DNA from: a virus
Taxonomy: Duplodnaviria; Heunggongvirae; Uroviricota; Caudoviricetes
Virus record (IMG/VR): IMGVR_UViG_3300009174_000004
Location: 31,778 to 95,777 of that record
Length of the DNA stretch: 64,000 bases
Direction: 5' to 3' (one strand)
The first letter of the stretch is position 1. The number at the start of each line of letters is the position of its first letter. Below are positions 8,195-58,246 of this stretch, in pieces. The notes below the pieces were generated by a model. It had not been told where the DNA came from. It ran no database searches and saw only the letters and a list, made by a program, of their open reading frames with translations. Position numbers and translations under genes: made by a program.

Positions 8195-8266
8195 CGCCGA
8201 TGCAAGGATTCGAACCCTGTCCGACCGGGTTGGAGCCGGTCATGCTTACCGTTACACCACATCGAC
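8195..8266 (-). tRNA. tRNA-Trp (anticodon CCA)
   Basis: Acceptor GTCGATG/CATCGGC. Perfect anticodon arm ACCGG-CTCCAAC-CCGGT. T arm CAGGG-TTCGAAT-CCTTG. Confidence 0.6.
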
Positions 8267-39046: not shown

Positions 39047-41128
39047 GTGAGTGCGCCCATTGGCGAGGTCCGGGTTGAAGTCCGTGGCGACACCTCCAAG
39101 GTCGATCCTGACATCGAAAAGGGCCTCCGGGCCGCTGCCAACGACGCTGACCCTGAGCTAAAGCGAATCGGCAAGGACTTCGGCGACACCATCAGCAACT
39201 CGATGGAAAAGGAGATCGAGAAGCACGGGCCCTCCTTCGTCCATGCCGTCGAGAAAGGCACATCGAGGAACCCGGCCAACATCGACTGGAACCTTGACAC
39301 CGACCGCAACACCGTCCAGAGGGAAGTAGCCAGTCTCGGACGAAGCATCGAGCGCGAGGTCAAGGCCCTCAGTAGCGGTGGTAACGGTAAGGGTCCCTTT
39401 GGTCTCATCGGTGCAGCCATCGCCGACGCTGTCGGCGCCGGCTTCAACATCTCAGGCAAATCACCCCTGATCTTGGCCCTAGTGCCGCTGTTCGGCTTCA
39501 TCGCCGAGCTAGTGATCGGCCTGGTCCAGGCCATCAATGCACTGTCGGCTGCCCTGTTCGTGGTGCCGAGCCTTATCGGCGCCATCATCCTGCAGGTGGG
39601 CGTCCTTTATGTCGCCTTCCAGGGTCTTGGAACTGCCATCCAGGGCGCTTTTGCAGCCAAGAATGCCGACGAACTGAAGAAGGCTCTGGAGGGGCTGACT
39701 CCCGCTGCACAGGAGTTCGTCAAGACCCTGCTGCCCCTGAGGGACGCCTTCAAGGCCATTCGTGACATCGTCCAGGAGCAGTTCTTCGAGCAGTTCGGCA
39801 ACTCGATCACCGTCCTAACGAAGAGGCTGATCCCGTTCCTTGACGCCAACCTGGGCACCGTGGCGGCAGCGCTCGGCAGCTTGGCCCGGACCATCGTCAC
39901 CTTCTTCGGTGACCCAGCGTTTACCCAGTTCTTAGGCACCCTCATTCCAGCCACGATCAACTGGATCAGGGAGCTTGAACCGGCCCTGTCGAAGTTCCTC
40001 TTCGGCCTGGCCTCCATCGGCACTGCCGTCACACCGTTCCTGGAGTGGGTCGGCACATCGTTGACCTCCAGCCTCGCCACCCTGGGTGACTGGCTCACCA
40101 AGCTCTCGTCGGACCCGGAGTTCCTGAAGTGGCTCGACGACATGAAGACGACCTTCAACGACCTGGGCAAGGTCATTGACTCCGTCGCCTTCTTCCTGTT
40201 CGCCTTGACCCGCGCCGTGGACCGAGCAGGTGGCAACAAGGTCCTGGAGGACATCGCCAACCAGTTGAACGCGGTTGCTGTGTTCTTGAGCACGGACATC
40301 GGAACCAAGGCCATTGAGGGTCTTATTCACGTCGTCGAGTTCCTGGCCTTCTCCTTCGCGTTCTTGGTGCTCGGCGTCCTAGCCCTGCTTGCGGCATTCG
40401 AGTTGGTCCTTGAGTTTCTGCGTCACGGGCTCTGGCCTTGGTTGACGGACTTCATCACCAACACCATCCCGGAGTTCTTTGAGTCCGTGGGCAAGGCCAT
40501 CATGGGCTTCTTCACCACGGTGGGCGAAGTCGTCAGTACCTACGTGAAGGGTTTGGGCCAGGCGTTCCTTGACCTAGGCGCCTTCATCTTGGAGTCCCTG
40601 TTCAACATCACCGGCTGGATCGTCACCCACGTCGCGCACTGGATCGATGTTGTCATCGACTTCTTCTCCAGTCTGCCCGGGAAAATCTGGGACGCCCTGG
40701 GGGATGTTGGAAACTTCCTCTTCGACGCTGGCAAGAAGCTGATCCAAGGCCTCATTGACGGTGTCATCTCCATGTACGACGCCCTGGGTCGAGCCGCACA
40801 CAATGCCGCTGCCGTCTTCCTGCAGTACTGGCCACTGTCCCCCGCCGAGGAAGGTCCTCTGTCCGGTAAGGGTGACCCGATGTACGCGGGCCAGAAGCTC
40901 ATTGACCGTCTGGTTACCGGTATGGAGATGGAGCAGCCGGCGCTGGCTGCAGCCACGAACAACATGGCCAGCACCGTGGTCTTCGGACCCAACTCGGTAC
41001 AAGCAACCTTCAATGGGCAGCTACCCACTAACAGTCAGGCCACGGCCCTTGGTGGAGCGCTGGGTGGAGGAATTGCGGGCCGACTAGCAGTACGTGATAC
41101 GCGCCTCGCCGTCAGATCCATGGCCTAA
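39047..41128 (+). CDS. tape measure-like protein (693 aa)
   Basis: Long central hydrophobic/TM-like stretches (PLILALVPLFGFIAELVIGLVQAINALSAALFVVPSLIGAIIL...), an alpha-helical N-terminus and a Gly-rich C-terminus. Position after the chaperone pair. Confidence 0.5.
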   Translation: MSAPIGEVRVEVRGDTSKVDPDIEKGLRAAANDADPELKRIGKDFGDTISNSMEKEIEKHGPSFVHAVEKGTSRNPANIDWNLDTDRNTVQREVASLGRSIEREVKALSSGGNGKGPFGLIGAAIADAVGAGFNISGKSPLILALVPLFGFIAELVIGLVQAINALSAALFVVPSLIGAIILQVGVLYVAFQGLGTAIQGAFAAKNADELKKALEGLTPAAQEFVKTLLPLRDAFKAIRDIVQEQFFEQFGNSITVLTKRLIPFLDANLGTVAAALGSLARTIVTFFGDPAFTQFLGTLIPATINWIRELEPALSKFLFGLASIGTAVTPFLEWVGTSLTSSLATLGDWLTKLSSDPEFLKWLDDMKTTFNDLGKVIDSVAFFLFALTRAVDRAGGNKVLEDIANQLNAVAVFLSTDIGTKAIEGLIHVVEFLAFSFAFLVLGVLALLAAFELVLEFLRHGLWPWLTDFITNTIPEFFESVGKAIMGFFTTVGEVVSTYVKGLGQAFLDLGAFILESLFNITGWIVTHVAHWIDVVIDFFSSLPGKIWDALGDVGNFLFDAGKKLIQGLIDGVISMYDALGRAAHNAAAVFLQYWPLSPAEEGPLSGKGDPMYAGQKLIDRLVTGMEMEQPALAAATNNMASTVVFGPNSVQATFNGQLPTNSQATALGGALGGGIAGRLAVRDTRLAVRSMA

Positions 41129-44396: not shown

Positions 44397-45478
44397 CGCT
44401 GACCAACTTTGCGTATGACCCGATTCTGGACCTGGCTCCGTGGGTGGGCCAGCGGCAGGCCACGTTCCGGTTCGACCTCATTAACCGGGTGTCTGGCGCT
44501 CACCTGGGGGAGGTCCATCCGCTGAGGTCTGCGTCACTGAGTCATGACACTGCGGCTGTTATCAAGCGAAGACTGACGGTGGCGTTTGGTGCTGCTGATA
44601 CGGCGGCCATCAATCCCATCACCGACATGATCCAAGTGACCATGGTGTTCGCTGAGGGTCAGGAGTACCCGCTTGGTGAGTACGTGTTCAGTGACGCCAC
44701 GTATCAGCTATTCACGTCGGGCCAACTGTCCAATATGGTCCTCAGTGACATGATGTTCATCGTCGATCAACAGATCGAAACCGCGTTCAGCGCACGGGAT
44801 GATACAAGACCCACGTTCTTTACCAACGGAACTGATATCTCCGTTGCCATCGAAAATCTCCTGAAGGATCAGCCGATTCGACTCGACATCGAGGAGAATG
44901 AGTTCCTAACTGTTGACTCCTGGTCGGCCGGGACCATGCGAGGACAGATCATCGAGGCCCTGTGTCTCACGGGAGACTACTTCAGTCCCTGGTTCGGTAA
45001 CGATGGTGTGCTTCATTTCATCCGAGCCTTCAATCCTGCCCTCAAGATTCCCGACTTCGACTGGGACAACGGCAGGCAGGTCCTACGGTCATCCATAACG
45101 CAGTCCAGCAACGTCCTGACGGCACCCAATCGGTTCACCGTGATCTCGAATGCTCCATCCGACCGCAACGTGCCAACCTTCGGTTCTGCTGACGTTCCGG
45201 TGAACGCACCACATTCCATCCAAAATAGAGGGTTTGTTGTAGCCTCAGTGTCGGATCTCCAGGCACTTACGGGTGAGCAATGTACGGCCATCGCCACCAA
45301 CCTTGTGCAGCGCCAGTCGGTCATCCAGACCTCTACCATCACGACTGCCCCAGACCCTCGCCATGACTCCTACAACGTGATCAAGTGGCAAGGAGATCTG
45401 TGGCTTGAGCTTGGCTGGTCCATGACATTGGTCGAAGGCTCTCCGATGAGTCATACCCTGCGGAAGGCTTATCGATGA
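44393..45478 (+). CDS. minor tail protein (361 aa)
   Basis: GTGA overlap with the upstream stop. Synteny. Confidence 0.45.
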   Translation: MTLTNFAYDPILDLAPWVGQRQATFRFDLINRVSGAHLGEVHPLRSASLSHDTAAVIKRRLTVAFGAADTAAINPITDMIQVTMVFAEGQEYPLGEYVFSDATYQLFTSGQLSNMVLSDMMFIVDQQIETAFSARDDTRPTFFTNGTDISVAIENLLKDQPIRLDIEENEFLTVDSWSAGTMRGQIIEALCLTGDYFSPWFGNDGVLHFIRAFNPALKIPDFDWDNGRQVLRSSITQSSNVLTAPNRFTVISNAPSDRNVPTFGSADVPVNAPHSIQNRGFVVASVSDLQALTGEQCTAIATNLVQRQSVIQTSTITTAPDPRHDSYNVIKWQGDLWLELGWSMTLVEGSPMSHTLRKAYR

Positions 45479-46239
45479 GTGATCCTATTGCCAACACGTC
45501 GTTGGAGCTTCCTGGCGTTATTGCGTCGGCGGTACAGCAGGTTGTCAGCGACTCGCGAGGTCTTGGCCTTACGTGGACACTCCGCATAGCGACAATACTC
45601 ACCACCTCACCGTTGACCATTATCTATGACGGTGATGCAGATACATCCAACGCCGTCTCGATGATCGGTCCCCTGGCGCCACTACAACGCATCTACTGTC
45701 TCATCGTTCCACCCAGCGGCAACTTCGTCGTCGGATGTCTCAACACGACATTGGGGAATATGGGTGCAAACACCTGCACCGTTGGAACGGTAGCAACGAC
45801 GCCTGCAGGTGGGGCTGAGACAGCAGTACCGGCGGGAAGCTGGAACTCGGAACCTACCTACTTCTTTGACCCTAAAGTCATCTACAAGGCCACCGTTAGT
45901 GGGTTCATGATTGAGTCCACCGGCGCCGGAGGTGCTGTGGGCCTTATCCGGATACGTAGGGGATCTGCCTCGACCACGGGCACGGTTCTTGGCCTCGCTG
46001 AGAAGTTCTCACCTGTTGGATTTGGTGGTCTTACTCAAAGCTTCTGCTACGTGATGTACTTCAAAAACAACACAAGCGACGTGGTCAGGACGAAGCTGTC
46101 CTTGACGGTAAACGGTGTCATCGGTGCTGGCACCTGGTCACTGTATGGCACCGCCGCCGATGCCCCATTAGCAGTAGTCGTGGAAAGCGTCGGATCCATT
46201 ACCGCCAATCGCGGCCTGTCCTTCGTTCCCACGTTCTAG
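45475..46239 (+). CDS. minor tail / fibre-like protein (254 aa, Gly/Thr/Ala-rich)
   Basis: ATGA overlap. Composition typical of tail fibre proteins. Confidence 0.4.
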   Translation: MSDPIANTSLELPGVIASAVQQVVSDSRGLGLTWTLRIATILTTSPLTIIYDGDADTSNAVSMIGPLAPLQRIYCLIVPPSGNFVVGCLNTTLGNMGANTCTVGTVATTPAGGAETAVPAGSWNSEPTYFFDPKVIYKATVSGFMIESTGAGGAVGLIRIRRGSASTTGTVLGLAEKFSPVGFGGLTQSFCYVMYFKNNTSDVVRTKLSLTVNGVIGAGTWSLYGTAADAPLAVVVESVGSITANRGLSFVPTF

Positions 46240-46249: not shown

Positions 46250-47332
46250 TTGAAAGTTCTGGTCATACCCGCCGACACTGCCGGTTGTGGTTACTACCGT
46301 CTGATCTGGGCCTCCGAGCACCTAGCCAGCCAGGGCCACGACATCGAAATCCAGTGGCCCGAAAAGGGTGCTGGCCTAGAGGTCCACATGGAGGGCGACA
46401 CGCCCGTTGACTGCAAGGTGCCCGACGGTGCAGATGTCGTTGTGCTGCAGCGACCATCGCACCTGTGGCATGCCAGCGTCATCTCGATGATGCGGGCCAA
46501 GGGTGTGGCCGTGGTCGTGGACATGGACGACAACCTGACCTGTATCCACCGCCAGAACATGGCCTACCTCAACTATCACCCGAGGTCGAACACGCCGTAC
46601 TCGTGGAAGAACGCCGAGGACGCCTGCCGAGCAGCCAGCATGGTCACCGTGTCCACGCGAGCCCTGATGAAGGTTTACGCCAAGCACGGTCGAGGCATGG
46701 TCATCGACAACTTCGTGCCCCAGTACTTCCTCGAAATCGAGGGTCGGAAAAGTGGGCATTTCGGCTGGCCTGGGACCACCCACTCTCACCCGGTCGACCT
46801 GCAGGCCTGCGGGAAGGCCGTCCAGGAACTCATCGATGACGGGTACAGGTTCCGGGTCATCGGCCCTCCGTCAAAGGTGAAGGAGAAGCTGAAGCTGACC
46901 GAGGAGCCCCAGTTCACTGAGGTCATCTCCACCCCCGTGTGGCCCCACGCCGTAGCGACTCTGGACGTCGTCCTAGCTCCGTTGGAGATATCAACCTTCA
47001 ATGATGCCAAGTCTCGCCTCAAGATCATCGAGGCTTCTGCCGTAGGCACACCCTGGGTAGCCAGCCCCCGCTCCGAGTACCGCCGGTTCTTCGCCGAGTC
47101 GCAGGCCGGGATCCTCGCTGAGCGCCCGAAGGACTGGTATAAGGGGGTGAAGCAACTCATGGATGATCAGGTACTACGCAAGGAACTAGGCGAACGGGGC
47201 CGGGAGTACATGAGGACTCAGACCATCGAGGCCAACTCGTGGCGCTGGCTGGAGGCCTGGACCAAAGCCTACGAGATCGAGCAGGGGAGCAGGAGCAGTG
47301 AAGGAGTTCTCGGACTTACCAACGCAGGGTGA
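46250..47332 (+). CDS. glycosyltransferase (GT-B fold, paralog of 48318..49274)
   Basis: N-terminus KVLVIPADTAGCGYYRL parallels RIFVIATDGAACLHYRL in the paralog. C-terminal GT-B features (E-x7-E-like EASAVGTPWVAS). TTG start. Confidence 0.5.
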   Translation: MKVLVIPADTAGCGYYRLIWASEHLASQGHDIEIQWPEKGAGLEVHMEGDTPVDCKVPDGADVVVLQRPSHLWHASVISMMRAKGVAVVVDMDDNLTCIHRQNMAYLNYHPRSNTPYSWKNAEDACRAASMVTVSTRALMKVYAKHGRGMVIDNFVPQYFLEIEGRKSGHFGWPGTTHSHPVDLQACGKAVQELIDDGYRFRVIGPPSKVKEKLKLTEEPQFTEVISTPVWPHAVATLDVVLAPLEISTFNDAKSRLKIIEASAVGTPWVASPRSEYRRFFAESQAGILAERPKDWYKGVKQLMDDQVLRKELGERGREYMRTQTIEANSWRWLEAWTKAYEIEQGSRSSEGVLGLTNAG

Positions 47333-47678
47333 ATGGGACATCTACGACTGGCAGCAGATCCTAGGCAAGAGCATGGTCTACAACGGCGAGACCGACGGGG
47401 CCTCGGTGAGCCTGGGTCAGGTGTACAAGGTCCACGCCATGCACAAGACCAGTACCGAGGGCTGGGGCCAGGCCGACTACGCCGCCCTGGTTGAACTTCA
47501 GAGCGGGGACTGGGCCACCGTCCATGCCGGCTGCGACACCACCGGCTGGGGATGCCACGGAGACTACATTGATTGGCGCATCTTTATCAGTAAAGACGAG
47601 GCCATCCGTATGGGCCTCACCAACGAGTCTCGGGACTGGCTTGGGCTGGGGCTGGAGACCATCAGTGAACAGGGCTAG
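47298..47678 (+). CDS. hypothetical protein (126 aa)
   Basis: GTG start with GGAG upstream. Globular-like composition. Confidence 0.35.
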   Translation: MKEFSDLPTQGEWDIYDWQQILGKSMVYNGETDGASVSLGQVYKVHAMHKTSTEGWGQADYAALVELQSGDWATVHAGCDTTGWGCHGDYIDWRIFISKDEAIRMGLTNESRDWLGLGLETISEQG

Positions 47679-48321
47679 AGCCGCGCTCATCATCACCCAC
47701 AATCGGCCACGTCTCCTGGCCGACTGCATCAGGGCCATCAGGCCACAGGTGGACGATGTCCTGGTCCTCGACAACGCCTCCGACCCCAAGGCCCACGTAC
47801 CACCGGAGGTCTGGCTGGAGTACATCCCGGACCAGCCGCCTAACCTGGCCCGGTTCTGGAACCACGGCTTCGACTTCTTCGACAAGGTCTATGCCGGCAA
47901 GCCCTATGACCTAGCTGTCCTCTGCGACGACGCCATCGTGCCTGACGGTTGGTTCAATGCCGTCGTTACTGGACTGCGGGACACCAATGCCGCCATCGGC
48001 TGTTCTAACCCATGGGGCATGGAGCATCCACCCATGGTGAAGACGAGCCCTGACTCGAACATCATGGGCCGGATGATTGGTTGGGCCTTCGTCATAGACG
48101 CAACACGCGGGCTGCGCGCCGACGAGTCGATGCAGTGGTGGTTTTTCGACACCGACCTCGACTGGCAGGCGAGGGGGGCTGGTGGCTTCGTCATGGTGGG
48201 TGGCTACCCCGTTCCTAACGTCCACCCAGGGCAGTACACCAGCGAAAGGCCCGAGCTTGGAGAACAAGCCGGCAAGGACCGGGCTGCCTTCGCAGCCAAG
48301 TGGGGCGGAGTTCCCTGGTGA
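47665..48321 (+). CDS. glycosyltransferase family 2
   Basis: N-terminus ALIITHNRPRLLADCIRAIRPQVDDVLVLDNASDP is the GT2 signature. GTG start overlaps the upstream stop. Confidence 0.6.
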   Translation: MNRARAALIITHNRPRLLADCIRAIRPQVDDVLVLDNASDPKAHVPPEVWLEYIPDQPPNLARFWNHGFDFFDKVYAGKPYDLAVLCDDAIVPDGWFNAVVTGLRDTNAAIGCSNPWGMEHPPMVKTSPDSNIMGRMIGWAFVIDATRGLRADESMQWWFFDTDLDWQARGAGGFVMVGGYPVPNVHPGQYTSERPELGEQAGKDRAAFAAKWGGVPW

Positions 48322-49274
48322 AGCGTCGAATCTTCGTCATCGCCACCGACGGGGCCGCCTGCCTGCACTACAGACTCCGGCTCCCGTTGCTGAACCTCAA
48401 CCCAGAAGAGTTCGAGGTCATCTGGGAACCGCCCGATAACCAGTGGCACTCGGGGGACCTGGTCATTGGGCAGCGTATCGCAGGCGATAACCAGGCCTGG
48501 CTGGACATGTGCGAGGCACCAGGACTGACCACGGTCTACGACCTGGACGACAACCTGCTCCGGGTGGACCGGGCCAACTCGGTGCCGTTCAGCATCTACG
48601 ACCCGATCGTGCCTGGAACTTACGCCAACATAGCTGCCTCTACTGTGGTCACTGTGTCCACGCCCAAGCTGGCTGAGGCCATCAAGGCCATCAACCCGAA
48701 CACCTTCGTGCTGCCTAACTGCTTGCCCAGTGACTACATTGCTGCGATCCAGTTCCCCCAGGACCAGATCACGGTGGGCTGGTGCGGCAGCATGTTCCAC
48801 ATTCAGGACTGGGGTGGGGTGGCCCAGCAGCTAGCTATCTACGCCCAGCAGGAGCCGAGGGCCCGGTTCTCCACCATCGGTGCCGACTACATGAACCCGG
48901 TCGTGCCGGCACGAGTGCACCCTTGGACCACTGTGGAAGGAGCCTGGCATGCGATGGATTTCAACATCGGCATTGCTCCGTTGGTTCGGACAACGTTCAA
49001 CGAGCACAAGTCGTGGATCAAGGTCCTCGAATACGCTGCGCGTGGTGTCCCCGCTGTGGCTCCAAGAATCGGGCAATACCCCGAGTTCATCGAGCATGGA
49101 ACCAATGGATTCCTATACGACGTACTTGAGGAGATTCCGCCCCTGTTGCTCGGACTATCGGACGATGGACTGAGGTCCCAGATGGGTGAGGCAGCCATGA
49201 ACACAGCCCTCCAGTACACGATCGACAAGCAGATTGGGCGCTGGGAGACCATCTACCGGGAGGTCTACAAGTGA
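48318..49274 (+). CDS. glycosyltransferase (GT-B fold)
   Basis: Paralog of 46250..47332. GTGA overlap. Confidence 0.5.
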   Translation: MKRRIFVIATDGAACLHYRLRLPLLNLNPEEFEVIWEPPDNQWHSGDLVIGQRIAGDNQAWLDMCEAPGLTTVYDLDDNLLRVDRANSVPFSIYDPIVPGTYANIAASTVVTVSTPKLAEAIKAINPNTFVLPNCLPSDYIAAIQFPQDQITVGWCGSMFHIQDWGGVAQQLAIYAQQEPRARFSTIGADYMNPVVPARVHPWTTVEGAWHAMDFNIGIAPLVRTTFNEHKSWIKVLEYAARGVPAVAPRIGQYPEFIEHGTNGFLYDVLEEIPPLLLGLSDDGLRSQMGEAAMNTALQYTIDKQIGRWETIYREVYK

Positions 49275-50476
49275 GGCGTGAGATCTGCGGCGGCTGCCGC
49301 TCGACGAACCTGACGGAGTGGCTGGATCTCGGCTCCTCGCCTTTGGCTAACGACTATCCAGTTCAGCCGGACCTGACCCTGAAGCAGTACGCCCTGGGGC
49401 TGCTGCGATGCAACCGGTGCTCGCTGGTCCAGTCGACGGAGGTTGTGCCTGACGATGAACTCTGGAACCGCGAGTACGGCTTCTACACCAGCGGCTCGTG
49501 GCAGGTGGTGGAGCAGCAGCGTGCGTACGCTCTGGACGTCCTGGCCAAGCACGAGGCCCTGGCCAGGAAGCTTGTCGTGGAGATCGGCTGCAACGACGGG
49601 ACAATGCTGAGGAACTTCCAGGAAGCCGGATATCAGACCCTGGGCGTGGACCCTGCGCGGGGTCCTACGGCAGTTGCTCGGGGCCACGGCCTGGACGTGG
49701 TCGTTGACCAGTTCAGCCTGGACGTTGCTCGCAGGATCGTCACCAGTCATGGGCGCGCGGGCCTGATCATCGCCAACAATGTCGTCGCCCACGTGGCCGA
49801 CCTCGACGACTTCATCAGTGGCATGGCATTTCTTCTGCGCCCTGAGGGTGTGGCCATTGTGGAGTTCCAGTACGTGGGTGACCTCGTTGCCGGCAACCAG
49901 TTCGACCACGTCTATCACGAGCACCGGTTCTTCTTCAGCCTGCTGTCGCTGGAGCTTGCCCTACGCCGCCATCGCCTGGAGCCGGTCCTGGTGAAGCACA
50001 CCAGCCCGCAGGGCGGCTCGTTGAGAGTGACCATCGCCCACGAGGGTGCCTTGACGCCGGACGCCAGCGTCAGGCAGCTACGGACCAATGAGAAGTGGCT
50101 GACAGAGCCCTACTGCCTGGCCGGTCTTCAGGGCCGTGCCGACTGGATCAGGCACCGTCTGCTGAGCCTGCTCTATGGCCTCAAGGATCAGGGGAAGCTA
50201 GTCGCTGGTTACGGCGCACCAGCCAAGTCAGCTACTCTGCTGAACTTCTGCCACATCGGACCTGACCTTGTTCAGTACATTGTGGACACAACTCCTGCCA
50301 AGCAGGGACGCTACACACCCGGAACCAACATTCCGATCATCAGTCCTGCCTCGGACAGCCGATCGCCGGACGTGTACCTGCTCCTGAACTGGAACTACTT
50401 CCACAGCATCCGGCGCAAGGAGTCGTCCTTCACGGGTGAGTGGCTGGTGCCGATCCCGCTGCCAGAGTTGGCGTAG
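49271..50476 (+). CDS. SAM-dependent C-methyltransferase-like enzyme with an N-terminal zinc ribbon (sugar C-methyltransferase family)
   Basis: CGGCRSTNLTEWLDLGSSPLAN...RCNRCSLVQ zinc ribbon, then class I methyltransferase motif LVVEIGCNDGTML. Architecture of NDP-hexose C-methyltransferases. Confidence 0.55.
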   Translation: MRREICGGCRSTNLTEWLDLGSSPLANDYPVQPDLTLKQYALGLLRCNRCSLVQSTEVVPDDELWNREYGFYTSGSWQVVEQQRAYALDVLAKHEALARKLVVEIGCNDGTMLRNFQEAGYQTLGVDPARGPTAVARGHGLDVVVDQFSLDVARRIVTSHGRAGLIIANNVVAHVADLDDFISGMAFLLRPEGVAIVEFQYVGDLVAGNQFDHVYHEHRFFFSLLSLELALRRHRLEPVLVKHTSPQGGSLRVTIAHEGALTPDASVRQLRTNEKWLTEPYCLAGLQGRADWIRHRLLSLLYGLKDQGKLVAGYGAPAKSATLLNFCHIGPDLVQYIVDTTPAKQGRYTPGTNIPIISPASDSRSPDVYLLLNWNYFHSIRRKESSFTGEWLVPIPLPELA

Positions 50477-50483
50477 GGCTGCC

Positions 50484-51017
50484 ATGATCACGCTCACGTG
50501 GCGCGACGTCGCACCCGGAGAAGGTCCAGCTATCTCCACGTCGCTGACGTACGACGAGACGACCAAGCTCCGCTGGCTTGCTGCTGGTGCAGACGTCCTG
50601 GAGATTGGTTCTGCGTACGGATACAGCGCTGTGGCCATGGCGCTGGCTGGTGCTCGTGTCGTGGCTGTTGATCCACACAACTGGCTCCCCTCACTGGAGC
50701 CGATGCAGGCGAACCTGGCTGCATACGAGGTATCGGATCAGGTGGACATCCGAGTAGCTCGTAGCAACGATGAGATGCCACGGCTGCACTCGGAAGGTCG
50801 CCTGTTCGACCTGGTCTGGATCGACGGAGACCATTCAGCCGAGGCAGTTACTCACGACGTCACCTGGGCCCTGAAGCTCCTGCGTCCAGGTACAGGAATC
50901 TTGGCCTGTCACGACTACGACGAGGCTACCTGTCCTGGCGTACGACAAGCCCTCGATGCCTGGAAGGTCCCTGAGGAACTGGTCGACACTCTCGCAATCT
51001 ACAGAGGACCGGCATGA
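50484..51017 (+). CDS. class I SAM-dependent methyltransferase (O-methyltransferase-like)
   Basis: Motif I VLEIGSAYGYSAVAMALAGARVVAVDP, then the acidic loop DLVWIDGDH. Confidence 0.6.
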   Translation: MITLTWRDVAPGEGPAISTSLTYDETTKLRWLAAGADVLEIGSAYGYSAVAMALAGARVVAVDPHNWLPSLEPMQANLAAYEVSDQVDIRVARSNDEMPRLHSEGRLFDLVWIDGDHSAEAVTHDVTWALKLLRPGTGILACHDYDEATCPGVRQALDAWKVPEELVDTLAIYRGPA

Positions 51018-51994
51018 AAGTAGCTGTCGTCGGTGGGGGAATTTTCGGCTGCACCATTGCCGTAGACCTCGCTCGCGCTGGCGCACAAGTGGACCTCTAT
51101 GAGGCCCGCAACGACGTCCTCCAGGGTGCAACGGCACGGTGTCAGGCGAGGCTGCATTCGGGCTACCACTACCCTCGCAGCGACACTACAGCAGCGTCGG
51201 CACGGGACGCAGCGCCACAGTTCATAGCTCGATACCCGACGGCAATACGTCGGGACCAGCACCACTATGTGATCGCGGCCGACAGCAAGGTCTCGGCGGA
51301 TGAGTACCTGGCATTCTGCGACCGGCTCAGCCTGCCGTACGAGGTGGTGGAGCCGCCGCAGGTGCACCATGCGCAGGTGTGCGTACGGGTGCCTGAGGCG
51401 TTCGTGGATGTGGACATCTTGCGTCGTCTGGTGCGCAGGGACCTGGCCAAGGCTGACGTCGTACTCAACCTCGGCCAGATTGCTGGACCAATCTTCGGCT
51501 ATGACCTGATAGTGCATGCAACGTACGGTCAGCCATGGTCCCGGCCACTGCGGTACGAACTGTGCGAGGTCGCACTGGTTGAGGTTGCCCGCTACCAGGG
51601 GCAATCGTTCGTGGTGCTCGACGGTGACCACGTATCACTGGACCCGTATGGTCGCGTGCACGCCCTCTATGACGTAGTCAATAGCGTCCACGATGTTTCC
51701 GACGATCCGGCCCGCATCATCTACCCGAAGAAACGGGTCAGCCGGTACGAGGTGATGCTGAAGACTGCTGGCCAGCACCTGCGTGGCCTAGAACCGCGCG
51801 GACAGGGCTTGGCCATCTATCACCGGTCGATGTTCGCCATCCGTGCGGTGCTGCCAGACGTGGATGCTACCGACGAGAGGCCGACCCTGATTGAGTGGGA
51901 CGGGAACGTCATCCAGGTCCTGTCGGGGAAGATCTGTACCGCTGTGGCAACCGCCCAGCGTGTGACCGACATGGTGTTCGGGGTGACTGCATGA
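51014..51994 (+). CDS. FAD/NAD(P)-binding oxidoreductase
   Basis: N-terminal Rossmann MKVAVVGGGIFGCTIAVDLARAGAQVDLYEAR (GxGxxG ... E). ATGA overlap. Confidence 0.55.
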   Translation: MKVAVVGGGIFGCTIAVDLARAGAQVDLYEARNDVLQGATARCQARLHSGYHYPRSDTTAASARDAAPQFIARYPTAIRRDQHHYVIAADSKVSADEYLAFCDRLSLPYEVVEPPQVHHAQVCVRVPEAFVDVDILRRLVRRDLAKADVVLNLGQIAGPIFGYDLIVHATYGQPWSRPLRYELCEVALVEVARYQGQSFVVLDGDHVSLDPYGRVHALYDVVNSVHDVSDDPARIIYPKKRVSRYEVMLKTAGQHLRGLEPRGQGLAIYHRSMFAIRAVLPDVDATDERPTLIEWDGNVIQVLSGKICTAVATAQRVTDMVFGVTA

Positions 51995-52578
51995 ACATCT
52001 CAGTCATCACGCCCACCTGGCAGCGGCATGACATTCTCATCAACCGGTGCTTGCCCTCGGTGACTGCCCAGACCGTGCCGGTCGAACACATTGTCGTCTC
52101 GGACGGTCCTGACCCAGTACTTAGGGAGCTTCTGGCTGGCTTCGACGTGACGTACGTCGAGGTTGACGAGCACCACACCGAGGGCGTGAACGTTGGTGGA
52201 TGGGCTCGTAATCGGGGCCTGGAGTTTGCCTCAGGTGACTTCATCGCCTATCTGGACGATGACAACGTCTTCCGGCCCAGCCATGTCGAGCTTCTGGCAA
52301 CTGCGTTGGCCGAGCACCCCGACCGAGACTTTGCCTACAGCCAGATGTTTCGACATGGTCTGGGTGACGTTATCGGGAGTGATCCACCATGCTATGGGTG
52401 CATAGACTCCTCGATCATCATGCACCGGGCTGACACCCACCGGAAATTGGGACCGTGGCCGGCCCCCTCTGAATACCATATCGACTGGCAGATAGTGCAG
52501 TCCTGGCTGCTGGCCGGTGGGACCTGGGTATTTGTGCCCGAGGTGACAGTGGACTACTACTTCAGGGGCTACGTATGA
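51991..52578 (+). CDS. glycosyltransferase family 2
   Basis: MNISVITPTWQRHDILINRCLPSVTAQT...YLDDDN (DxD). ATGA overlap. Confidence 0.6.
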   Translation: MNISVITPTWQRHDILINRCLPSVTAQTVPVEHIVVSDGPDPVLRELLAGFDVTYVEVDEHHTEGVNVGGWARNRGLEFASGDFIAYLDDDNVFRPSHVELLATALAEHPDRDFAYSQMFRHGLGDVIGSDPPCYGCIDSSIIMHRADTHRKLGPWPAPSEYHIDWQIVQSWLLAGGTWVFVPEVTVDYYFRGYV

Positions 52579-53198
52579 GCAGACCGACCATTACCGTCGT
52601 CACCCCGACGCATCCGGCCCGAGTGCACAATGGAATGTTGCTGCGTGCCCAGCAGTCTGTGTGGGCCCAGACACTTCTACCTGATGCTCATGCTGTCGCC
52701 TATGACCTTGATCGGGAAGGTGCTGCTGCGACCAGGCAGCGGGCCCTGATGATGGCCAATACAGACTTTGTGGCTTTCCTGGACTCAGACGACTTCTTCT
52801 TCGCTGAGCACCTTGAACAGCTTATGAATCATCAGCAGAAGACGGGTGCTGACTACGTTTACTCCTGGTTCAAGGTCTTCCAGGAGACGCCCTGGGGTGG
52901 GTCGCTACTGGATCATGACCCGATCTTTCCGTCCACCCACTTCACCCGACCCTTTGACCCGGAAAGCCCGATCGAGACGACGATTACGACCCTGGTCCGC
53001 ACAGAACTAGCCAAAGAAGTTGGATTCAAGCCCCTGAACAGAGGTCATGACATCAACTCGGGCGAGGACCGATACTTCACCCTCAACTGCCTGGAGAAGG
53101 GCGCCAAGATCTCCCACCTGGTCAAGAAGACCTGGGGCTGGAGTCACCACGGGGCTAACACGTCAGGACTACCTACCAAGGGAGACGCGGCACAGTGA
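52575..53198 (+). CDS. glycosyltransferase family 2-like
   Basis: TITVVTPTHPARVHNGMLLRAQQSVWAQT...FLDSDD (DxD). Confidence 0.55.
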   Translation: MSRPTITVVTPTHPARVHNGMLLRAQQSVWAQTLLPDAHAVAYDLDREGAAATRQRALMMANTDFVAFLDSDDFFFAEHLEQLMNHQQKTGADYVYSWFKVFQETPWGGSLLDHDPIFPSTHFTRPFDPESPIETTITTLVRTELAKEVGFKPLNRGHDINSGEDRYFTLNCLEKGAKISHLVKKTWGWSHHGANTSGLPTKGDAAQ

Positions 53199-53470
53199 CC
53201 TACAACTACAGCGACCATGCCGTCTTTGCCCTGGTAGGCATAACTCACTTTCCAGTTGAGATAACTGCGCCAGGACCACAGCCACCTAACCCTCCGAACC
53301 TCAGTCTCGTATGCGGTAAGTGCTACAACGCATGGCCCTGCCAAACGATACTTGACTACCGCGCCTACGCACTGGCCAACCAGATTCCAACGGCTACCCA
53401 GTCGCCGCTACAGCCTGGCTTCCAGGACTTCCAGAACACTGGAAAACTGGTACCCGGCCGCTCGACTTAG
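53195..53470 (+). CDS. hypothetical protein (91 aa)
   Basis: GTGA overlap. ORF track. Confidence 0.3.
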   Translation: MTYNYSDHAVFALVGITHFPVEITAPGPQPPNPPNLSLVCGKCYNAWPCQTILDYRAYALANQIPTATQSPLQPGFQDFQNTGKLVPGRST

Positions 53471-53505
53471 TGACAGCAGCGCCTTTCCAACCTAAGGTGA
53501 TCTCT

Positions 53506-53721
53506 ATGACGGCGGGATACAAGATCACTGCCTACGACGCAGCCGGCGTCGAGGTCAAGACCATAGAACTTGATGCTGGAGAAGACGGGCCCGGGTTCTA
53601 CGCCCACCAGCTACTCCATGCTGATCTCATTACCCGAGTCCAGGTCCACGACTCAGAGACCGGAGAACTACTCCTAGATCGCAGCGAGCCCACGGAGGCC
53701 GACTATGCTGCTGATTCCTGA
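53506..53721 (+). CDS. hypothetical protein (71 aa)
   Basis: ATG with AAGGTGA 7 nt upstream. The ORF track begins at GTG 53470. Confidence 0.3.
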   Translation: MTAGYKITAYDAAGVEVKTIELDAGEDGPGFYAHQLLHADLITRVQVHDSETGELLLDRSEPTEADYAADS

Positions 53722-54553
53722 GTGGACCTACCTCGGGCCCCCCGACTCAAACTACAGCGGCTCCATGAAGGCGTTCATGGGCTTGGTCTTACACATCGCA
53801 GAAGGCTCATACGAAGGCACCATCAACTGGCAGAAGAACCCAGCATCTGACGTGTCCAGCCATACTGTGCACGGCAAAGCTGGCGAACGTGCTCAGATGC
53901 TCGACATCAACCTCACCGCCTGGACACAGTCCAGCGGCAACGGCTACTGGGTCAGCGTGGAGCATGCCGGGTTCAACTACGAGGAACTCACGCCACCGCA
54001 GTTCGAGTCGACGGCAGCCCTGTACGCCTGGCTCGTTGTCGCTAAGCACGTCCCACTCCAGTTGACTGACGACGTCAACCGTCCTGGCCTCGGTTGGCAC
54101 GGCATGGGTGGTGCCGCCTGGGGCGGCCACTACAACTGTCCCGGTGAGCCGATCAAGGCTCAGCGACAGGGCATCCTCAACCGCGCTACGGCGATTCTGA
54201 ACGGAGAGGGCATGACATCCCCGGCCGATTTTTGGAACTTCCCCATCAACAACCCGAACGACGGTAAGCCGAACCCAGCAGCGACGTACGTTGCATACGC
54301 TGACTACTACGCCTGGCTGGCAGGGATCTGGGCCTGGCAGTCAAAGCACCTGCTCCTGGGTCTGGCCAGTATGGATGATCCAATTACGGTGCCAGCGCCA
54401 CCGGAGAAGTTCGGGAACTACCCAGAGACCCAGCCGTTTGAGGTGGCCAACCTGCTGGCCCAGGCCATCATGAACACCGGCGGGGGCCCCGGCGGGCTCG
54501 TGCCGCATGTGCATGCAGTTGGCGACACTGGCCCCGCAATCGAGGACAACTGA
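53705..54553 (+). CDS. N-acetylmuramoyl-L-alanine amidase (Amidase_2/PGRP) endolysin
   Basis: HTVHGKAGERAQM...SGNGYWVSVEHAGFNYEE...GWHGMGGAAWGGHYNCPG matches the Amidase_2 zinc-binding pattern. Confidence 0.65.
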   Translation: MLLIPEWTYLGPPDSNYSGSMKAFMGLVLHIAEGSYEGTINWQKNPASDVSSHTVHGKAGERAQMLDINLTAWTQSSGNGYWVSVEHAGFNYEELTPPQFESTAALYAWLVVAKHVPLQLTDDVNRPGLGWHGMGGAAWGGHYNCPGEPIKAQRQGILNRATAILNGEGMTSPADFWNFPINNPNDGKPNPAATYVAYADYYAWLAGIWAWQSKHLLLGLASMDDPITVPAPPEKFGNYPETQPFEVANLLAQAIMNTGGGPGGLVPHVHAVGDTGPAIEDN

Positions 54554-54554
54554 C

Positions 54555-55574
54555 TTGAGAGTCCTGCTCACGGGAGCCGCTGGATTCCTCGGCTCCCACT
54601 GTCTGCGTCACCTATTAACCAAAACGGACTGGCACATCGTGTGTCCGGTGAGCTTCAAGCACAAGGGCCTACCCGAGCGCCTCGTGGTGGCGGTAGACGA
54701 GGAGGGGGACTGGTGGGACAGGATCACTGTCGTTCGGTGTGACCTAGCAGCCCCCATCAACGACACCACGGCCACCCGGTTCGGGGACATCGACTACATC
54801 ATCAACTACGCCTCCGAGTCGCACGTTGATCGGTCCATCGATGATCCAGTTCCCTTTATTCAGAACAACATCGAAGTGGTACTCAACGTCCTGGAGTACG
54901 CCCGGAAGATCCGCCCCAGCGTCTTCGTCCAGGTCAGTACCGACGAGGTCTATGGGCCGGCGCCCGAGGGCTACGACTGTGCGGAGTGGGATCCCATCAT
55001 CCCTAGTAATCCGTACAGCGCCTCCAAGGCTGCCCAGGAGGCCATCGCCATCAGCTACTGGCGCACCTACGGGGTCAACCTGATCATCACCAACTGTATG
55101 AACCTCATCGGCGAGACCCAAGACCCCGAGAAGTTCATCCCAATGATCATGTCGAGGGTCCTGCACCGGGAGCCCGTCCCGATCCATGCTGCTGCCGACG
55201 GCACCATCGGCTCCCGGTTCTACCTGCATGCCCGTAACCTAGCCGATGCCATCCTGTTCCTCATCCGGCGAGGCAACATCTCCCGGTACGAATCCGGCGC
55301 CACGCAGCCGGACCGGTGGAACGTCGTGGGCGAGCGTGAGGTGTCCAATTTGGAGATGGCCCAGATGGTGGCCGACTGCCTCGGGGAACCGCTGCAGTAC
55401 GAGCTAGTGGACTTCCACACCAGCCGTCCTGGCCACGACCTCAGGTACGCCCTCGACGGGTCTAAGCTGGCAGCGACAGGATGGACGATGCCGGTTCCCC
55501 TCGATGCCTCAATCAAGGCCCTGGTGAACTGGACCAGGGCTCACCCCGAGTGGGCCAGCAGGAGGCCTGACTAA
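54555..55574 (+). CDS. NAD-dependent sugar epimerase/dehydratase (extended SDR; dTDP-glucose 4,6-dehydratase-like)
   Basis: TTG start gives MRVLLTGAAGFLGSH (Gly-rich NAD motif). Catalytic PYSASKAAQE (YxxxK). TDEVYG motif. Confidence 0.65.
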   Translation: MRVLLTGAAGFLGSHCLRHLLTKTDWHIVCPVSFKHKGLPERLVVAVDEEGDWWDRITVVRCDLAAPINDTTATRFGDIDYIINYASESHVDRSIDDPVPFIQNNIEVVLNVLEYARKIRPSVFVQVSTDEVYGPAPEGYDCAEWDPIIPSNPYSASKAAQEAIAISYWRTYGVNLIITNCMNLIGETQDPEKFIPMIMSRVLHREPVPIHAAADGTIGSRFYLHARNLADAILFLIRRGNISRYESGATQPDRWNVVGEREVSNLEMAQMVADCLGEPLQYELVDFHTSRPGHDLRYALDGSKLAATGWTMPVPLDASIKALVNWTRAHPEWASRRPD

Positions 55575-56101: not shown

Positions 56102-56461
56102 ATGCCAGGTTCTCGGCGCACCTACAGCTACGCCCTGGTGCCCACGACCCAGGAGGATGCTCCCAAGGTCCTGGCGCGGGCGGAGCGGATTCTGGGCTGG
56201 GCCTGCGACGGTGACGAGCGGGTGGAGTGCCATGGGATCACCGGCGAGGCCGTGGGCTCAATCACCCTGAACCTGACGATCGTGGGCCGGGACCAGTGGT
56301 GGTCCCGGCAACTGGCGCAGGACATCCTGAACTTAGTCACCTGGGGCCTAGAGAAGGACGCTACCAAGCTTCAGCTTGAGTCCAGGCGCCAGGAGGTGCA
56401 TATGAACCGGGGCTATGCCCATGGTCGGACGAAGACGTACCGGACGCCCAAGATCAGTTAG
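56102..56461 (+). CDS. hypothetical protein (119 aa), last gene of the rightward block
   Basis: ORF track. Convergent 8-nt overlap with the acidic protein gene. Confidence 0.35.
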   Translation: MPGSRRTYSYALVPTTQEDAPKVLARAERILGWACDGDERVECHGITGEAVGSITLNLTIVGRDQWWSRQLAQDILNLVTWGLEKDATKLQLESRRQEVHMNRGYAHGRTKTYRTPKIS

Positions 56462-56834
56462 TTGGGGCTCCGTCGTCGGCGGCGAGCCGAGCCAGGACGT
56501 CTGCGTGTTCTACGGCAATCAGTTCACCGAGGTCGGAGACGGCGCCATTGGGAGAGGGTTCCTCCTCGCCTCCTTCCTCCAGGTCCTCGTCGTCTAGTTC
56601 TTCGTCATCCTCTTCTTCGAGGTCCTCATCTTCCTCGTCGTCCAGTTCGGCGACGGAGCGCTGGTACTCCTCCTCGGACTCCTGGACGATGGCGTACTCC
56701 CAGTTCTTGAACGCAGCCAGCAACTCCTCGCCCTCGTTCAAGATCTCCAGGACGTTGCCGTTCTCGGCGTAGGTGATCGAGTCCCCGTTGATGAGGATGG
56801 ATTCCTGGCTAACGAGCTTGACGATGATTCCCAT
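56454..56834 (-). CDS. highly acidic protein (126 aa; D/E-rich C-terminal half)
   Basis: Translation EEEYQRSVAELDDEEDEDLEEEDDEELDDEDLEEGGEEE. Confidence 0.4.
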   Translation of the reverse strand: MGIIVKLVSQESILINGDSITYAENGNVLEILNEGEELLAAFKNWEYAIVQESEEEYQRSVAELDDEEDEDLEEEDDEELDDEDLEEGGEEEPSPNGAVSDLGELIAVEHADVLARLAADDGAPTN

Positions 56835-56913
56835 TTAAGACTCCTTCCAGAGAGGGCGACCCCGGCTCCTCTCTGCCTAGGAGCCGGGGCCACGTTATTG
56901 GAGCCTATAACAG

Positions 56914-57168
56914 TTACGGGCGGTCGAACTCGCCGTCCTTGGCTCCGTCTACGAAAGCATCCCACTCGGGACCGGTGAACTTCAGAACCGGGCCGGTTCC
57001 GTTGTCCTTGGTGTCACGCACTAGGACCTCGTCACTGCCCGCGAAGGCGATCTCGACGCAGTTGTCCGTGTACGGACCTGAGCGCGTGCTCTTGCGCCAG
57101 AAGACCTCGACGCAGTTAGCCGACTCACTACTGTACCTACTCTTGTGCCAGCCGCCGTCAGGCTGCAT
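56914..57168 (-). CDS. DUF397-like protein with a duplicated CVE motif
   Basis: WHKSRYSSESANCVEVFWRKSTRSGPYTDNCVEIAF...VLVRDTKDNGTGPVLKFTGPEWDAFVDGAK. Confidence 0.6.
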   Translation of the reverse strand: MQPDGGWHKSRYSSESANCVEVFWRKSTRSGPYTDNCVEIAFAGSDEVLVRDTKDNGTGPVLKFTGPEWDAFVDGAKDGEFDRP

Positions 57169-57171
57169 TGA

Positions 57172-57438
57172 TCAATCCTTTCCGAGGCGGTCGAACTCGC
57201 CGTCCTTGGTTCCGGCCACGAAAGCATCCCACTCGGGACCGGTGAACTTCAGAACCGGACCATCGGGATTCTTGGAGTCGCGGACCCAGACCTCATCACC
57301 GTCGAGCCTGGTCTGCACGCAGGCGCCGTCGGTGTTGCTGCGGCTGCTCTTGGTCCAGGCGGCCTGGACGCAGTTGCCACCCTGGCTGTCGGACGCACTG
57401 CTCTTGATCCAGTTGATGATCCACTCGATATCAGACAT
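57172..57438 (-). CDS. DUF397-like protein (paralog of 56914..57168)
   Basis: From the internal Met: MSDIEWIINWIKSSASDSQGGNCVQAAWTKSSRSNTDGACVQTRLDGDEVWVRDSKNPDGPVLKFTGPEWDAFVAG. RBS GAGGAAAGGG upstream. Confidence 0.6.
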   Translation of the reverse strand: MSDIEWIINWIKSSASDSQGGNCVQAAWTKSSRSNTDGACVQTRLDGDEVWVRDSKNPDGPVLKFTGPEWDAFVAGTKDGEFDRLGKD

Positions 57439-57457
57439 TTTACCCTTTCCTCTTCCG

Positions 57458-58246
57458 CTAGCAGCCGAGGCTAGCGCCACGGTTGGCCATGAACGGCACT
57501 GGATCCACCTTGCCGTTCCAGAGCCCACCAGTGTGGACCTCGAAGTGCAGGTGTGGTCCCTGGGCATCGCCCGTAGCCCCGACATACCCGATGACCTGGC
57601 CAGCGTTCACCCAGCCTGCCTTGACAGCGAAGCTCGACTGGTGCATATACACCGTCCAGACCCCGTTGCCATGGTTGATCATCGTGTAGTTGCCGGCGCC
57701 GCTGGACTGCCAGCCCACGGAAACCGTACCTCCGGTTGCCGCCCGGATGGCTGTGCCGTAGCCAGCAGCCAGGTCCACGCCCTCGTGCATCCGGCCCCAG
57801 CGCCAGCCGTAGCCGGACACGACGCAGGCGTTGACCGGAGGTACCCAGCCAGAGCTTGTCGTCACTGCCGCCTGAGCCGGCGCGGGAGGTGCCGCCGAGA
57901 CATTGCCCGAGGCACAATTGATTACCAGGCGCTGCCCTGGGTAGATCAGATTCGGGTTGCCACCCACGACGGACCGGTTGTCGTTGTAGATGCCCGTCCA
58001 GGCGCCGTTGCCGCAGTGCCTGGAGGCCAGTCCGCTGAGGGTGTCACCGGGTACGACGGTAACGGTGATCGTGGCGGATGCGGCCAGTTCCTTCGGGGCA
58101 ACGAAGGTGTTGCCCAACTTGACCGTGTTCGCCACGGCCAGCCTGGTATCAGACTCGGCCGTCTTTGCGTGAGCCGGGACTTGCAACCCCAGCAAGATCG
58201 CACTCGCTAGCCCAGTGGCTAGCAGAGCCTTACCCACCTTGAGCAT
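57458..58246 (-). CDS. secreted LysM + M23 (lysostaphin-like) peptidoglycan endopeptidase
   Basis: Signal peptide MLKVGKALLATGLASAILLGLQVPAHA. LysM VTVVPGDTLSGLASRH...IYPGQRLVI. M23 motifs HEGVDLAAGYGTAIRAATGG and GATGDAQGPHLHFEV. Confidence 0.7.
   Translation of the reverse strand: MLKVGKALLATGLASAILLGLQVPAHAKTAESDTRLAVANTVKLGNTFVAPKELAASATITVTVVPGDTLSGLASRHCGNGAWTGIYNDNRSVVGGNPNLIYPGQRLVINCASGNVSAAPPAPAQAAVTTSSGWVPPVNACVVSGYGWRWGRMHEGVDLAAGYGTAIRAATGGTVSVGWQSSGAGNYTMINHGNGVWTVYMHQSSFAVKAGWVNAGQVIGYVGATGDAQGPHLHFEVHTGGLWNGKVDPVPFMANRGASLGC

Follow-up and report, generated by a model that had tools for sequence, protein, structure and literature searches.

A putative virion glycan locus with its own nucleotide-sugar tailoring enzymes in an actinobacteriophage-like metagenomic genome

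The stretch of DNA analysed here (the window) comprises 64,000 nucleotides, positions 31,778 to 95,777 of the viral record IMGVR_UViG_3300009174_000004 (Caudoviricetes), and belongs to an actinobacteriophage-like genome with a GC content of about 0.60 and 22 tRNAs, whose portal protein is 32% identical to that of Arthrobacter phage Tank. Positions 46250-55574 of the window are occupied by a plus-strand gene block without a break, and its coordinates match the gene calls made independently on the source contig, a metagenomic contig of 104.8 kb (ENA ERZ27252315 k141_259995), which were compared with the plus-strand open reading frames (ORFs). A sequence-only reading had described the block as a nine-gene sugar-modification cassette. 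Searches of Pfam, NCBIfam, PHROG and PDB, together with an AF2 model and Foldseek for the flavin adenine dinucleotide (FAD) protein, recovered all nine genes and their families at the places where that reading had put them, and with the conserved small gene hyp126 the cassette consists of ten genes. They are listed below, where SAM stands for S-adenosylmethionine, NDP for nucleoside diphosphate, SDR for short-chain dehydrogenase/reductase, and the core trio for the three glycosyltransferases (GTs) that recur among relatives.

46250..47332, plus strand: GTB1, a GT-B (GT4-like) glycosyltransferase, member of the core trio
47298..47678, plus strand: hyp126, a conserved small protein among the cassette genes
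47665..48321, plus strand: GTx, a divergent GT-A/GT2 glycosyltransferase, member of the core trio
48318..49274, plus strand: GTB2, a second GT-B glycosyltransferase
49271..50476, plus strand: CMT (C-methyltransferase), 401 aa, predicted NDP-4-keto-6-deoxyhexose C-methyltransferase of the TcaB9/KijD1/TylC3 family
50484..51017, plus strand: MT (small methyltransferase), 177 aa, class I SAM enzyme resembling O-methyltransferase family 3
51014..51994, plus strand: FAD oxidoreductase, 326 aa, with the fold of D-amino-acid oxidase (DAO), sarcosine oxidase and glycerol-3-phosphate dehydrogenase
51991..52578, plus strand: GT2a, a GT-A/GT2 glycosyltransferase with a DDD motif
52575..53198, plus strand: GT2b, a GT-A/GT2 glycosyltransferase with a DSD motif, member of the core trio
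54555..55574, plus strand: SDR, an RmlB-like NDP-hexose 4,6-dehydratase (extended SDR)

The five GTs proposed earlier, two GT-B paralogs and three GT2 enzymes, are all upheld. GTB1 matches Glyco_trans_1_2 and Glyco_trans_1_4 at about 1e-9 (Glyco_trans_1_4 1.9e-9) and phrog_7162 at 2.6e-34, and it is 36% identical to gp165 of Arthrobacter phage Atuin and 29% identical to gp6 of the Zukovirus phage KimJongPhill. GTB2 matches Glyco_trans_1_4 at 4.6e-6 and phrog_7162 at 1.8e-35, and GTB1 and GTB2 are distant paralogs (24-26% identity, E 4e-16). GT2a (PF00535, 1.4e-14) and GT2b (PF00535, 2.3e-11; phrog_14775, 5e-39) share 30% identity over 119 residues; GT2a has counterparts that are 62-65% identical and adjoin the MT and FAD genes in the relatives L024 and L027, and GT2b is 50% identical to KimJongPhill gp107 and 40% identical to Atuin gp169. 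GTx is the weakest of the family assignments, because its own match to PF00535 is sub-threshold (E 0.0052), and it rests on homologs and invariant motifs: GTx is 35% identical to KimJongPhill gp109, which is annotated 'glycosyltransferase', PF00535 is detected in about a quarter of 120 of its 456 relatives among the matches listed, and D36-N37-A38-S39 together with D88-D89 (DxD) are invariant in the family. The small protein hyp126 has 31 homolog clusters, reaching down to 39% identity, and its gene always lies directly 3' of that of a GTB1-type GT; a search with its predicted fold gave no confident match.

CMT is built from an N-terminal zinc ribbon, a class I SAM domain and a C-terminal Methyltransf_14 domain (Methyltransf_13 PF08421, 1.9e-12; Methyltransf_23 PF13489, 1.3e-15; Methyltransf_14 PF08484, 3e-41), and its residues 5-396 align with TcaB9 at E 1.4e-80 (phmmer alignment to 3ndi). 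The zinc cysteines Cys6, Cys9, Cys47 and Cys50 are present, and the equivalents of Tyr76, His181, Tyr222, Glu224 and His225, which we take to be the active-site residues of TcaB9, are all aligned and identical. The predicted reaction, a SAM-dependent C-methylation of an NDP-4-keto-6-deoxyhexose, is supported by the co-occurrence of CMT with 4,6-dehydratases. Because relatives pair CMT with a GDP-mannose 4,6-dehydratase or an RmlC-like enzyme, the family leaves both the nucleotide of the substrate and the choice between C-3 and C-5 free. A GT-B gene lies within 3 kb of CMT in 12 of the 21 CMT-carrying loci, nine of these GT-Bs being clearly nearer to GTB2 than to GTB1 and three about equally near to both, and this co-occurrence suggests that GTB2 is the likely transferase for the C-methyl sugar. 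The distribution of CMT is narrow: among cultured and metagenomic phage records it turned up in no more than seven, it is encoded by 17 viral contigs in IMG/VR at 46-58% identity, and a scan of genome contigs returned only two contigs of one metagenome-assembled genome of the Jiangellaceae, with no clear bacterial source cluster. In the limited literature collection that was searched, no paper was found that names a sugar 3-C-methyltransferase together with a phage.

The other two tailoring enzymes, MT and the FAD oxidoreductase, form a conserved unit with GT2a in L024 and L027. MT matches Methyltransf_24 at 6e-18 and 'O-methyltransferase family 3' (PDB 7cvu) at 1.8e-10. The FAD protein matches the DAO family at 2.4e-15, and its AF2 model (pLDDT 90.6) has a two-domain FAD fold with an N-terminal GxGxxG, for which Foldseek returned 7exs (E 1.6e-16, TM 0.75) as well as glycine oxidase, opine dehydrogenase and GlpD. 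A weak GlfT1-like match of GT2a, which suggested galactofuranose, had prompted the consideration of a UDP-galactopyranose mutase for the FAD protein; this candidate was rejected on the DAO/sarcosine-oxidase fold. The protein has more than 1000 metagenomic relatives and no match in 50,697 cultured phage records. A DAO-like FAD fold makes up about half the length of giant-virus proteins of about 680 aa (BFVD A0A481YWN0 from Marseillevirus LCMAC201 and A0A7D3UQN3 from Fadolivirus), one of which is annotated as a glycosyl transferase. This suggests a fusion of a flavoenzyme with a GT in both proteins, and on account of such a fusion the cassette flavoenzyme may be linked to glycosylation.

The SDR (Epimerase, 2.7e-44) aligns end to end with dTDP-glucose 4,6-dehydratases (PDB 6bi4, 3e-45), and the alignment to 6bi4 contains the motifs GAAGFLGS (GxxGxxG), ESHVDRS, STDEVYG with the Thr-Asp-Glu triad, and YSASK (YxxxK). 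The earlier description of this protein as dTDP-glucose-4,6-dehydratase-like is therefore borne out for the RmlB-like motifs and fold, but not for the specificity towards dTDP-glucose, since the score against the equivalog model TIGR01181 (224.1 bits) lies below the cut-off of 365.1 bits and relatives carry a GDP-mannose dehydratase. Because of this score the protein is filed as RmlB-like. It shares 58% identity with Atuin gp153 and 48% with KimJongPhill gp4. These two genes (positions 1930-2994 in record L001 and 1199-2251 in record L003, respectively) are labelled 'UDP-glucose dehydrogenase' in GenBank and 'nucleotide-sugar epimerase' in RefSeq, and since the GenBank label does not fit RmlB-type motifs, it looks like a mis-annotation. 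Beyond these phages, weak homologs of GTB1 (27% identity) were detected in 132 records of cultured phages and members of the RmlB-like SDR family in 204, and both record lists include Escherichia phAPEC8-like and Campylobacter phages (records H31-H52), which suggests that the uncharacterised pairing of a GT-B with a dehydratase is widespread in phages of unrelated hosts.

The cassette is part of a tightly packed plus-strand block that reaches from the genes of the tape measure and minor tail proteins to those for lysis, and sites resembling promoters or terminators are not in excess across this tail-cassette-lysis block. The linkage of the genes through ATGA and GTGA overlaps, reported previously, is confirmed by a count of six 4-base start/stop overlaps, three of each kind. 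Coding of the cassette ORFs is supported by the GC content at third codon positions (GC3), which ranges from 0.62 to 0.86, compared with 0.42-0.48 at second positions (GC2). GC3 is 0.78-0.82 across the genes from GTB1 to CMT and drops to 0.64-0.73 from MT to GT2b. As this step falls at the sole non-overlapping junction among the enzyme genes between GTB1 and GT2b and matches the synteny breakpoints seen among relatives, it fits two modules of separate origin in the cassette.

A whole-cassette megablast against the 50,697 phage records gave zero matches, and therefore there is no close cultured relative. Eight IMG/VR metagenomic relatives have the same tail genes p1085, p361 and p254, the last of which is located in the window as follows:

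45475-46239: p254, whose counterpart directly precedes the GT block in the relatives

In all eight relatives the GTs directly follow the p254-like gene. GTx and GT2b are present in every one of them, and GTB1 in all except the truncated locus L007. The minimal GT content, seen in L039 and L040, is GTx, GT2b and GTB1, a trio that the Zukovirus phages of Streptomyces possess as well. The accessory genes that surround it change. The window and the JGI contig L027 share the order GTB2-CMT-MT-FAD-GT2a; L008 and L009 have GTB2-CMT-GDP-mannose 4,6-dehydratase-GT2a, and the truncated L007 has their gene set with no match to GTB2; L038 and L041 carry a Methyltransf_24 enzyme, a short SDR and a TOD1/MUCI70-like GT; L033 carries an RmlC-like isomerase, CMT and an SDR; and L024 has only MT-FAD-GT2a-GT2, located immediately upstream of the capsid gene. 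In most relatives the partner of CMT is GDP-mannose 4,6-dehydratase. The cassette is thus one variant of a locus that is conserved across a phage lineage and not a singular arrangement. By analogy the locus behaves like an O-antigen locus, with a constant position and core and with swappable tailoring modules that would lead to differing surface glycans.

We propose that the cassette is a late-expressed phage glycan factory that acts in the host cytoplasm and glycosylates virion proteins of the phage itself, and we assign this reading a probability of about 0.55. Because several GTs occur together with CMT, an O-methyltransferase-like enzyme, a flavoenzyme and a 4,6-dehydratase, the product would be a methylated, 6-deoxy and probably C-branched sugar, and the methylated, deoxy or branched sugar suggested by the sequence-only reading is indeed implied by CMT, the O-methyltransferase-like enzyme and the 4,6-dehydratase. 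In the proposed pathway the SDR would convert host NDP-glucose to NDP-4-keto-6-deoxyhexose and CMT would use SAM to attach a C-methyl branch, by analogy at C-3, both steps being predicted from family membership and intact catalytic residues. The reduction of the 4-keto group would be carried out by an enzyme from outside the set found in the window, for which a host RmlD-like reductase is one candidate. The five soluble GTs would then assemble an oligosaccharide directly on the acceptor protein or proteins: judging from co-occurrence, GTx, GT2b and GTB1 may make the core glycan and GT2a may work with the MT-FAD pair, and GTB2, which travels with CMT, would probably add the branched sugar. The O-methyltransferase-like MT and the DAO-fold flavoenzyme would tailor the sugars.

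No membrane segment was found in the cassette proteins, where the maximum KD19 value (1.62) corresponds to the Rossmann beta-1 strand of the FAD protein, and none of them has a Pfam, NCBIfam or PHROG match to a lipid-carrier (polyprenyl-phosphate) priming transferase, a flippase or a polymerase. For these two reasons the synthesis would be expected to end on a cytoplasmic acceptor. The absence of membrane and lipid-carrier parts, the late tail-lysis operon, the conserved adjacency to virion genes and the precedent of Corndog and other mycobacteriophages together favour a virion protein as the target. The genes of this region, from the giant ORF to the tail genes that lead up to the cassette, are:

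16894-32025, plus strand: giant ORF, 5043 aa, between the gene of a MuF-like head protein and the capsid gene
32513-34222: major capsid protein (MCP)
35400-36113: major tail protein (MTP, the tail tube)
39047-41128: tape measure protein, after which minor tail proteins run to 46239

On the one hand, the genomic setting points to virion proteins. On the other hand, several observations weigh against the proposal. The window encodes neither a 4-ketoreductase nor a sugar-1-phosphate nucleotidyltransferase, the endolysin gene separates the SDR from the GTs, and the SDR falls short of the TIGR01181 cut-off, as described above. Neither BLASTP nor profile comparison relates the GTs to Che8 gp108-110 or to Corndog gp35-38: the best BLASTP match to the Che8 and Corndog enzymes has an E of 0.008 over 42 residues, and when the GTx family is compared with gp109 and gp110 by hhalign, the probability is at most 1%. 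Because of this lack of sequence and profile relation, a function shared with Che8 and Corndog would be analogous and not orthologous. Finally, C-termini of the Che8 type, which contain Ser and Thr (the Che8 capsid and tail-tube proteins end in ..NKTGS and ..YSDGS), were not found on the capsid and tail-tube proteins of the window. MCP ends in ..GVQRVVTC (..SSGSTGVQRVVTC; 34205-34222), and MTP ends in ..APPAAACGCAAV / TRLAPPAAACGCAAV (36069-36113), with Ser and Thr absent from its last 18 residues.

The search for acceptor sites in the structural proteins gave no Ser/Thr-dense windows and no shared C-terminal motifs in the capsid or tail-tube protein; short Ser/Thr patches are present only in p773, p1085 and the tape measure protein. 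The tail tubes of the relatives end in ..CGCSTLSSLTPG. In L024 and L038 the tail tubes keep TRLAPP..CGC and continue into variable tails that contain Ser and Thr (ADTCGCVTLADLIP, TSACGCSTLSSLTPG), and further C-terminal cysteines are seen in the L024 capsid protein (..SIVCS) and in p180 (..AAACPEC). The conserved C-terminal cysteines could form inter-subunit disulfides or could be modification sites. The Pro/Thr/Ser-rich linkers that had been put forward as glycosylation substrates find little support, as the linkers in the window are rich in Pro and Ala, poor in Ser and Thr, and located mostly in the ORF of 5043 aa.

This giant ORF consists of a globular N-terminus, about 4000 residues of repeats rich in Ala, Pro, Glu, Lys and Arg (KAAPEAAPEAAPE, RP(T/V)VKRAAKKVA) and a globular C-terminus with a HEFGH metalloprotease-like motif. 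Motifs of the form RP(T/V)V(K/T)RA, in which Thr is flanked by Pro, recur along it, Ser and Thr together make up 8.8% of its residues, and it contains no Ser/Thr-dense windows; its counterpart in L024 has 2055 aa. The product may be an internal histone-H1-like DNA-binding protein or an ejected protein. Between the giant gene and the capsid gene lies an ORF of about 49 aa (32200-32350, plus strand; MCNCGKSGG...TITVKKK), and in L024 a DUF7196 protein of 52 aa is encoded between the giant gene and the MT-FAD-GT2 module; the former ORF is possibly a small gene conserved in the head region.

The lack of a canonical acceptor tail on the capsid and tail tube leads to the question of whether the glycan is attached elsewhere, that is to the giant protein, to a host protein or to a small molecule. 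The giant protein is suggested by the locus L024, where the MT-FAD-GT2 unit follows the giant protein of 2055 aa with only the 52-aa ORF between them, and by the Pro-flanked Thr of the RP(T/V)V(K/T)RA repeats, and the CGC tails of the relatives' tail tubes could be S-linked acceptors or merely disulfides. However, the Ser and Thr content of the giant protein is low, dense windows are missing from it, and the cassette does not keep a constant place with respect to the giant gene; in addition, we know of no precedent for phage glycosylation of such a non-structural or atypical target, and we consider it unlikely. A different destination, the host envelope, would have the enzymes modify a cell-wall glycopolymer or surface glycoconjugate and so block superinfection or the re-adsorption of progeny to debris. 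Bacterial loci for the cell wall and the O-antigen typically feature GT2 and GT4 enzymes, RmlB-like dehydratases and C-methyl sugars, the near-matches in NCBIfam are exopolysaccharide and teichuronic GTs, relatives bear the JGI label 'glycosyltransferase involved in cell wall biosynthesis', and the cassette adjoins lysis genes. Nevertheless, modification of host cell-wall polymers, which the sequence-only reading had offered as an alternative, is disfavoured and appears quite improbable, because the cassette proteins are without membrane segments and without family matches to a priming transferase, flippase, polymerase or GtrA/GtrC-like protein, the phage has 22 tRNAs and carries these genes in its late structural operon, and the locus is fixed beside the tail genes in eight of eight relatives.

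The GTs might also act on DNA, glycosylating hydroxymethylated bases with unusual sugars supplied by the tailoring enzymes, as phage GT-A and GT-B enzymes, sometimes accompanied by sugar epimerases, build mono- and disaccharides on 5-hydroxymethylcytosine (bioRxiv 10.1101/2023.12.21.572611), and MT weakly matches PHROGs labelled 'DNA methyltransferase'. The nearest family of MT is nevertheless O-methyltransferase family 3. Known clusters of this kind need an adjacent C5-methyltransferase with a 5mYOX/TET or ThyS-like hydroxymethylase in a DNA-metabolism setting; neither the cassette nor the precomputed Pfam matches of the called genes in about 39 kb of flanking sequence (about 8 kb of it outside the window) showed a C5-methyltransferase, 5mYOX, TET or ThyS, and the cassette is located in a late tail-lysis operon. 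Five GTs and a C-branched deoxysugar would moreover exceed any described DNA glycan, and hypermodification of DNA is accordingly regarded as very unlikely.

With decoration of virion proteins as the preferred reading, a broader proposal can be made more tentatively. The locus would be a hypervariable 'virion glycan locus' of an uncultured actinobacteriophage lineage, with a three-GT core and swappable nucleotide-sugar modules, among them what would be the first route in a phage to a C-methyl branched 6-deoxyhexose, the DAO-fold family and hyp126, and with possible attachment to the C-terminal Cys of the tail tube. If the locus works as its enzymes suggest, some phages make their own activated sugars, namely C-branched, O-methylated 6-deoxyhexoses, beyond borrowing host UDP-sugars, and the glycan is a trait of the whole lineage that varies at the level of strains, which would indicate selection on the virion surface, for example for adsorption, stability, or evasion of binding factors or immunity. 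The cultured Zukovirus phages, which have the core trio and the dehydratase, can serve as testable proxies, and the DAO-fold enzyme and hyp126 are flagged as glycosylation-linked, uncharacterised protein families.

The remaining genes around the cassette are described here for completeness. Three of them lie between the GTs and the SDR:

53195-53470, plus strand: hyp91, a small ORF between the GTs and the endolysin, called on the source contig
53506-53721, plus strand: hyp71, a small ORF between the GTs and the endolysin, called on the source contig
53705..54553, plus strand: Amidase_2 endolysin (PF01510, 4.5e-13; phrog_1493)

Family searches with hyp91 and hyp71 returned nothing. The endolysin is outside the sugar pathway, although it sits between the SDR and the GTs. 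Right past the cassette a convergent minus-strand block starts (56454-58246), which contains an acidic protein of 126 aa, two DUF397 proteins, which are of a kind typical for Streptomyces-like actinomycetes, and a LysM and Peptidase_M23 protein, possibly a second lysin; in L027, too, the cassette is followed by this M23 gene. At the other end of the window the minus strand carries the array of 22 tRNA genes (762-8266), one of which has a CTA anticodon (7130-7202), that is an amber suppressor, with the ARAGORN label 'Pyl'. The TAG stop is used by nine of the 29 genes checked, and amber read-through by this tRNA was rejected, as the TAG-terminated genes yield no sensible extensions. A PADLOC scan gave generic methyltransferase and Rossmann matches only, and no integrase was noticed in the window, where no systematic scan for one was made.

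Among known systems, the O-glycosylation of mycobacteriophage virions (Che8 gp108-110, Corndog gp35-38 and Myrna) is one in which small soluble GTs, with or without an O-methyltransferase, are similarly encoded in or near the virion genes of an actinobacteriophage. In Corndog an O-methyltransferase and three GTs are located inside the virion operon, between the portal gene and the protease gene (PMC4351075), and glycans have been reported on the C-termini of mycobacteriophage capsid and tail-tube proteins (Freeman 2023, as cited in PMC12363180 and PMC12619734). Both those sets and the cassette are presumed to glycosylate structural proteins directly in the cytoplasm. To our knowledge, glycosylation of phage virions has been shown only recently and only for simple sets of two or three GTs. 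That the cassette is larger than these sets, as the sequence-only reading had claimed, is confirmed for Che8 (three GTs) and for Corndog (one methyltransferase and three GTs): the window has five GTs instead of three and adds a 4,6-dehydratase, a C-methyltransferase and a flavoenzyme.

The nearest cultured counterparts of individual genes are found in Zukovirus (Zuko, KimJongPhill) and in the Arthrobacter phages Atuin, Mimi and Racecar, which have homologs of GTB1 (29-36% identity), GT2b (40-50%) and SDR (48-60%). A homolog of GTx (34-35%) is present in Zukovirus only and not in the Atuin-like phages, the weak partial matches to GT2a all fall within the genes homologous to GT2b, and C-methyltransferase, FAD enzyme, GTB2 and hyp126 are missing from both groups. 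Their homologous genes are scattered: Zukovirus has them at the ends of its genome, Atuin among genes of DNA metabolism. The GT, methyltransferase and SDR genes of these phages are annotated but uncharacterised. The C-methyltransferase itself resembles TcaB9, KijD1 and TylC3, the 3-C-methyltransferases of deoxysugars in actinomycete antibiotics, in its three-domain build, its four zinc cysteines and its catalytic residues. It differs from them in being encoded by a phage and in having no 2,3-dehydratase, aminotransferase or ketoreductase partners, and in related phages it goes together with GDP-mannose 4,6-dehydratase or with an enzyme resembling RmlC.

Phage clusters for DNA glycans share with the cassette their GT-A and GT-B enzymes, some of them with sugar epimerases; in these clusters the GT is next to a C5-methyltransferase and 5mYOX or ThyS, among DNA-metabolism genes (Pyle et al., bioRxiv 10.1101/2023.12.21.572611). 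The cassette can also be set beside the glycosylation machineries of giant viruses, which differ from it in having eukaryotic hosts and other GT families. In the chlorovirus PBCV-1 and in Mimivirus, nucleotide-sugar dehydratases of the virus itself, cytoplasmic GTs and methylated sugars decorate the capsid independently of the host machinery, and we know of no C-methyl branched sugar in giant viruses. What is new is a putative phage glycosylation locus that has its own nucleotide-sugar tailoring and is built from a conserved core and variable accessories across an uncultured actinophage lineage.

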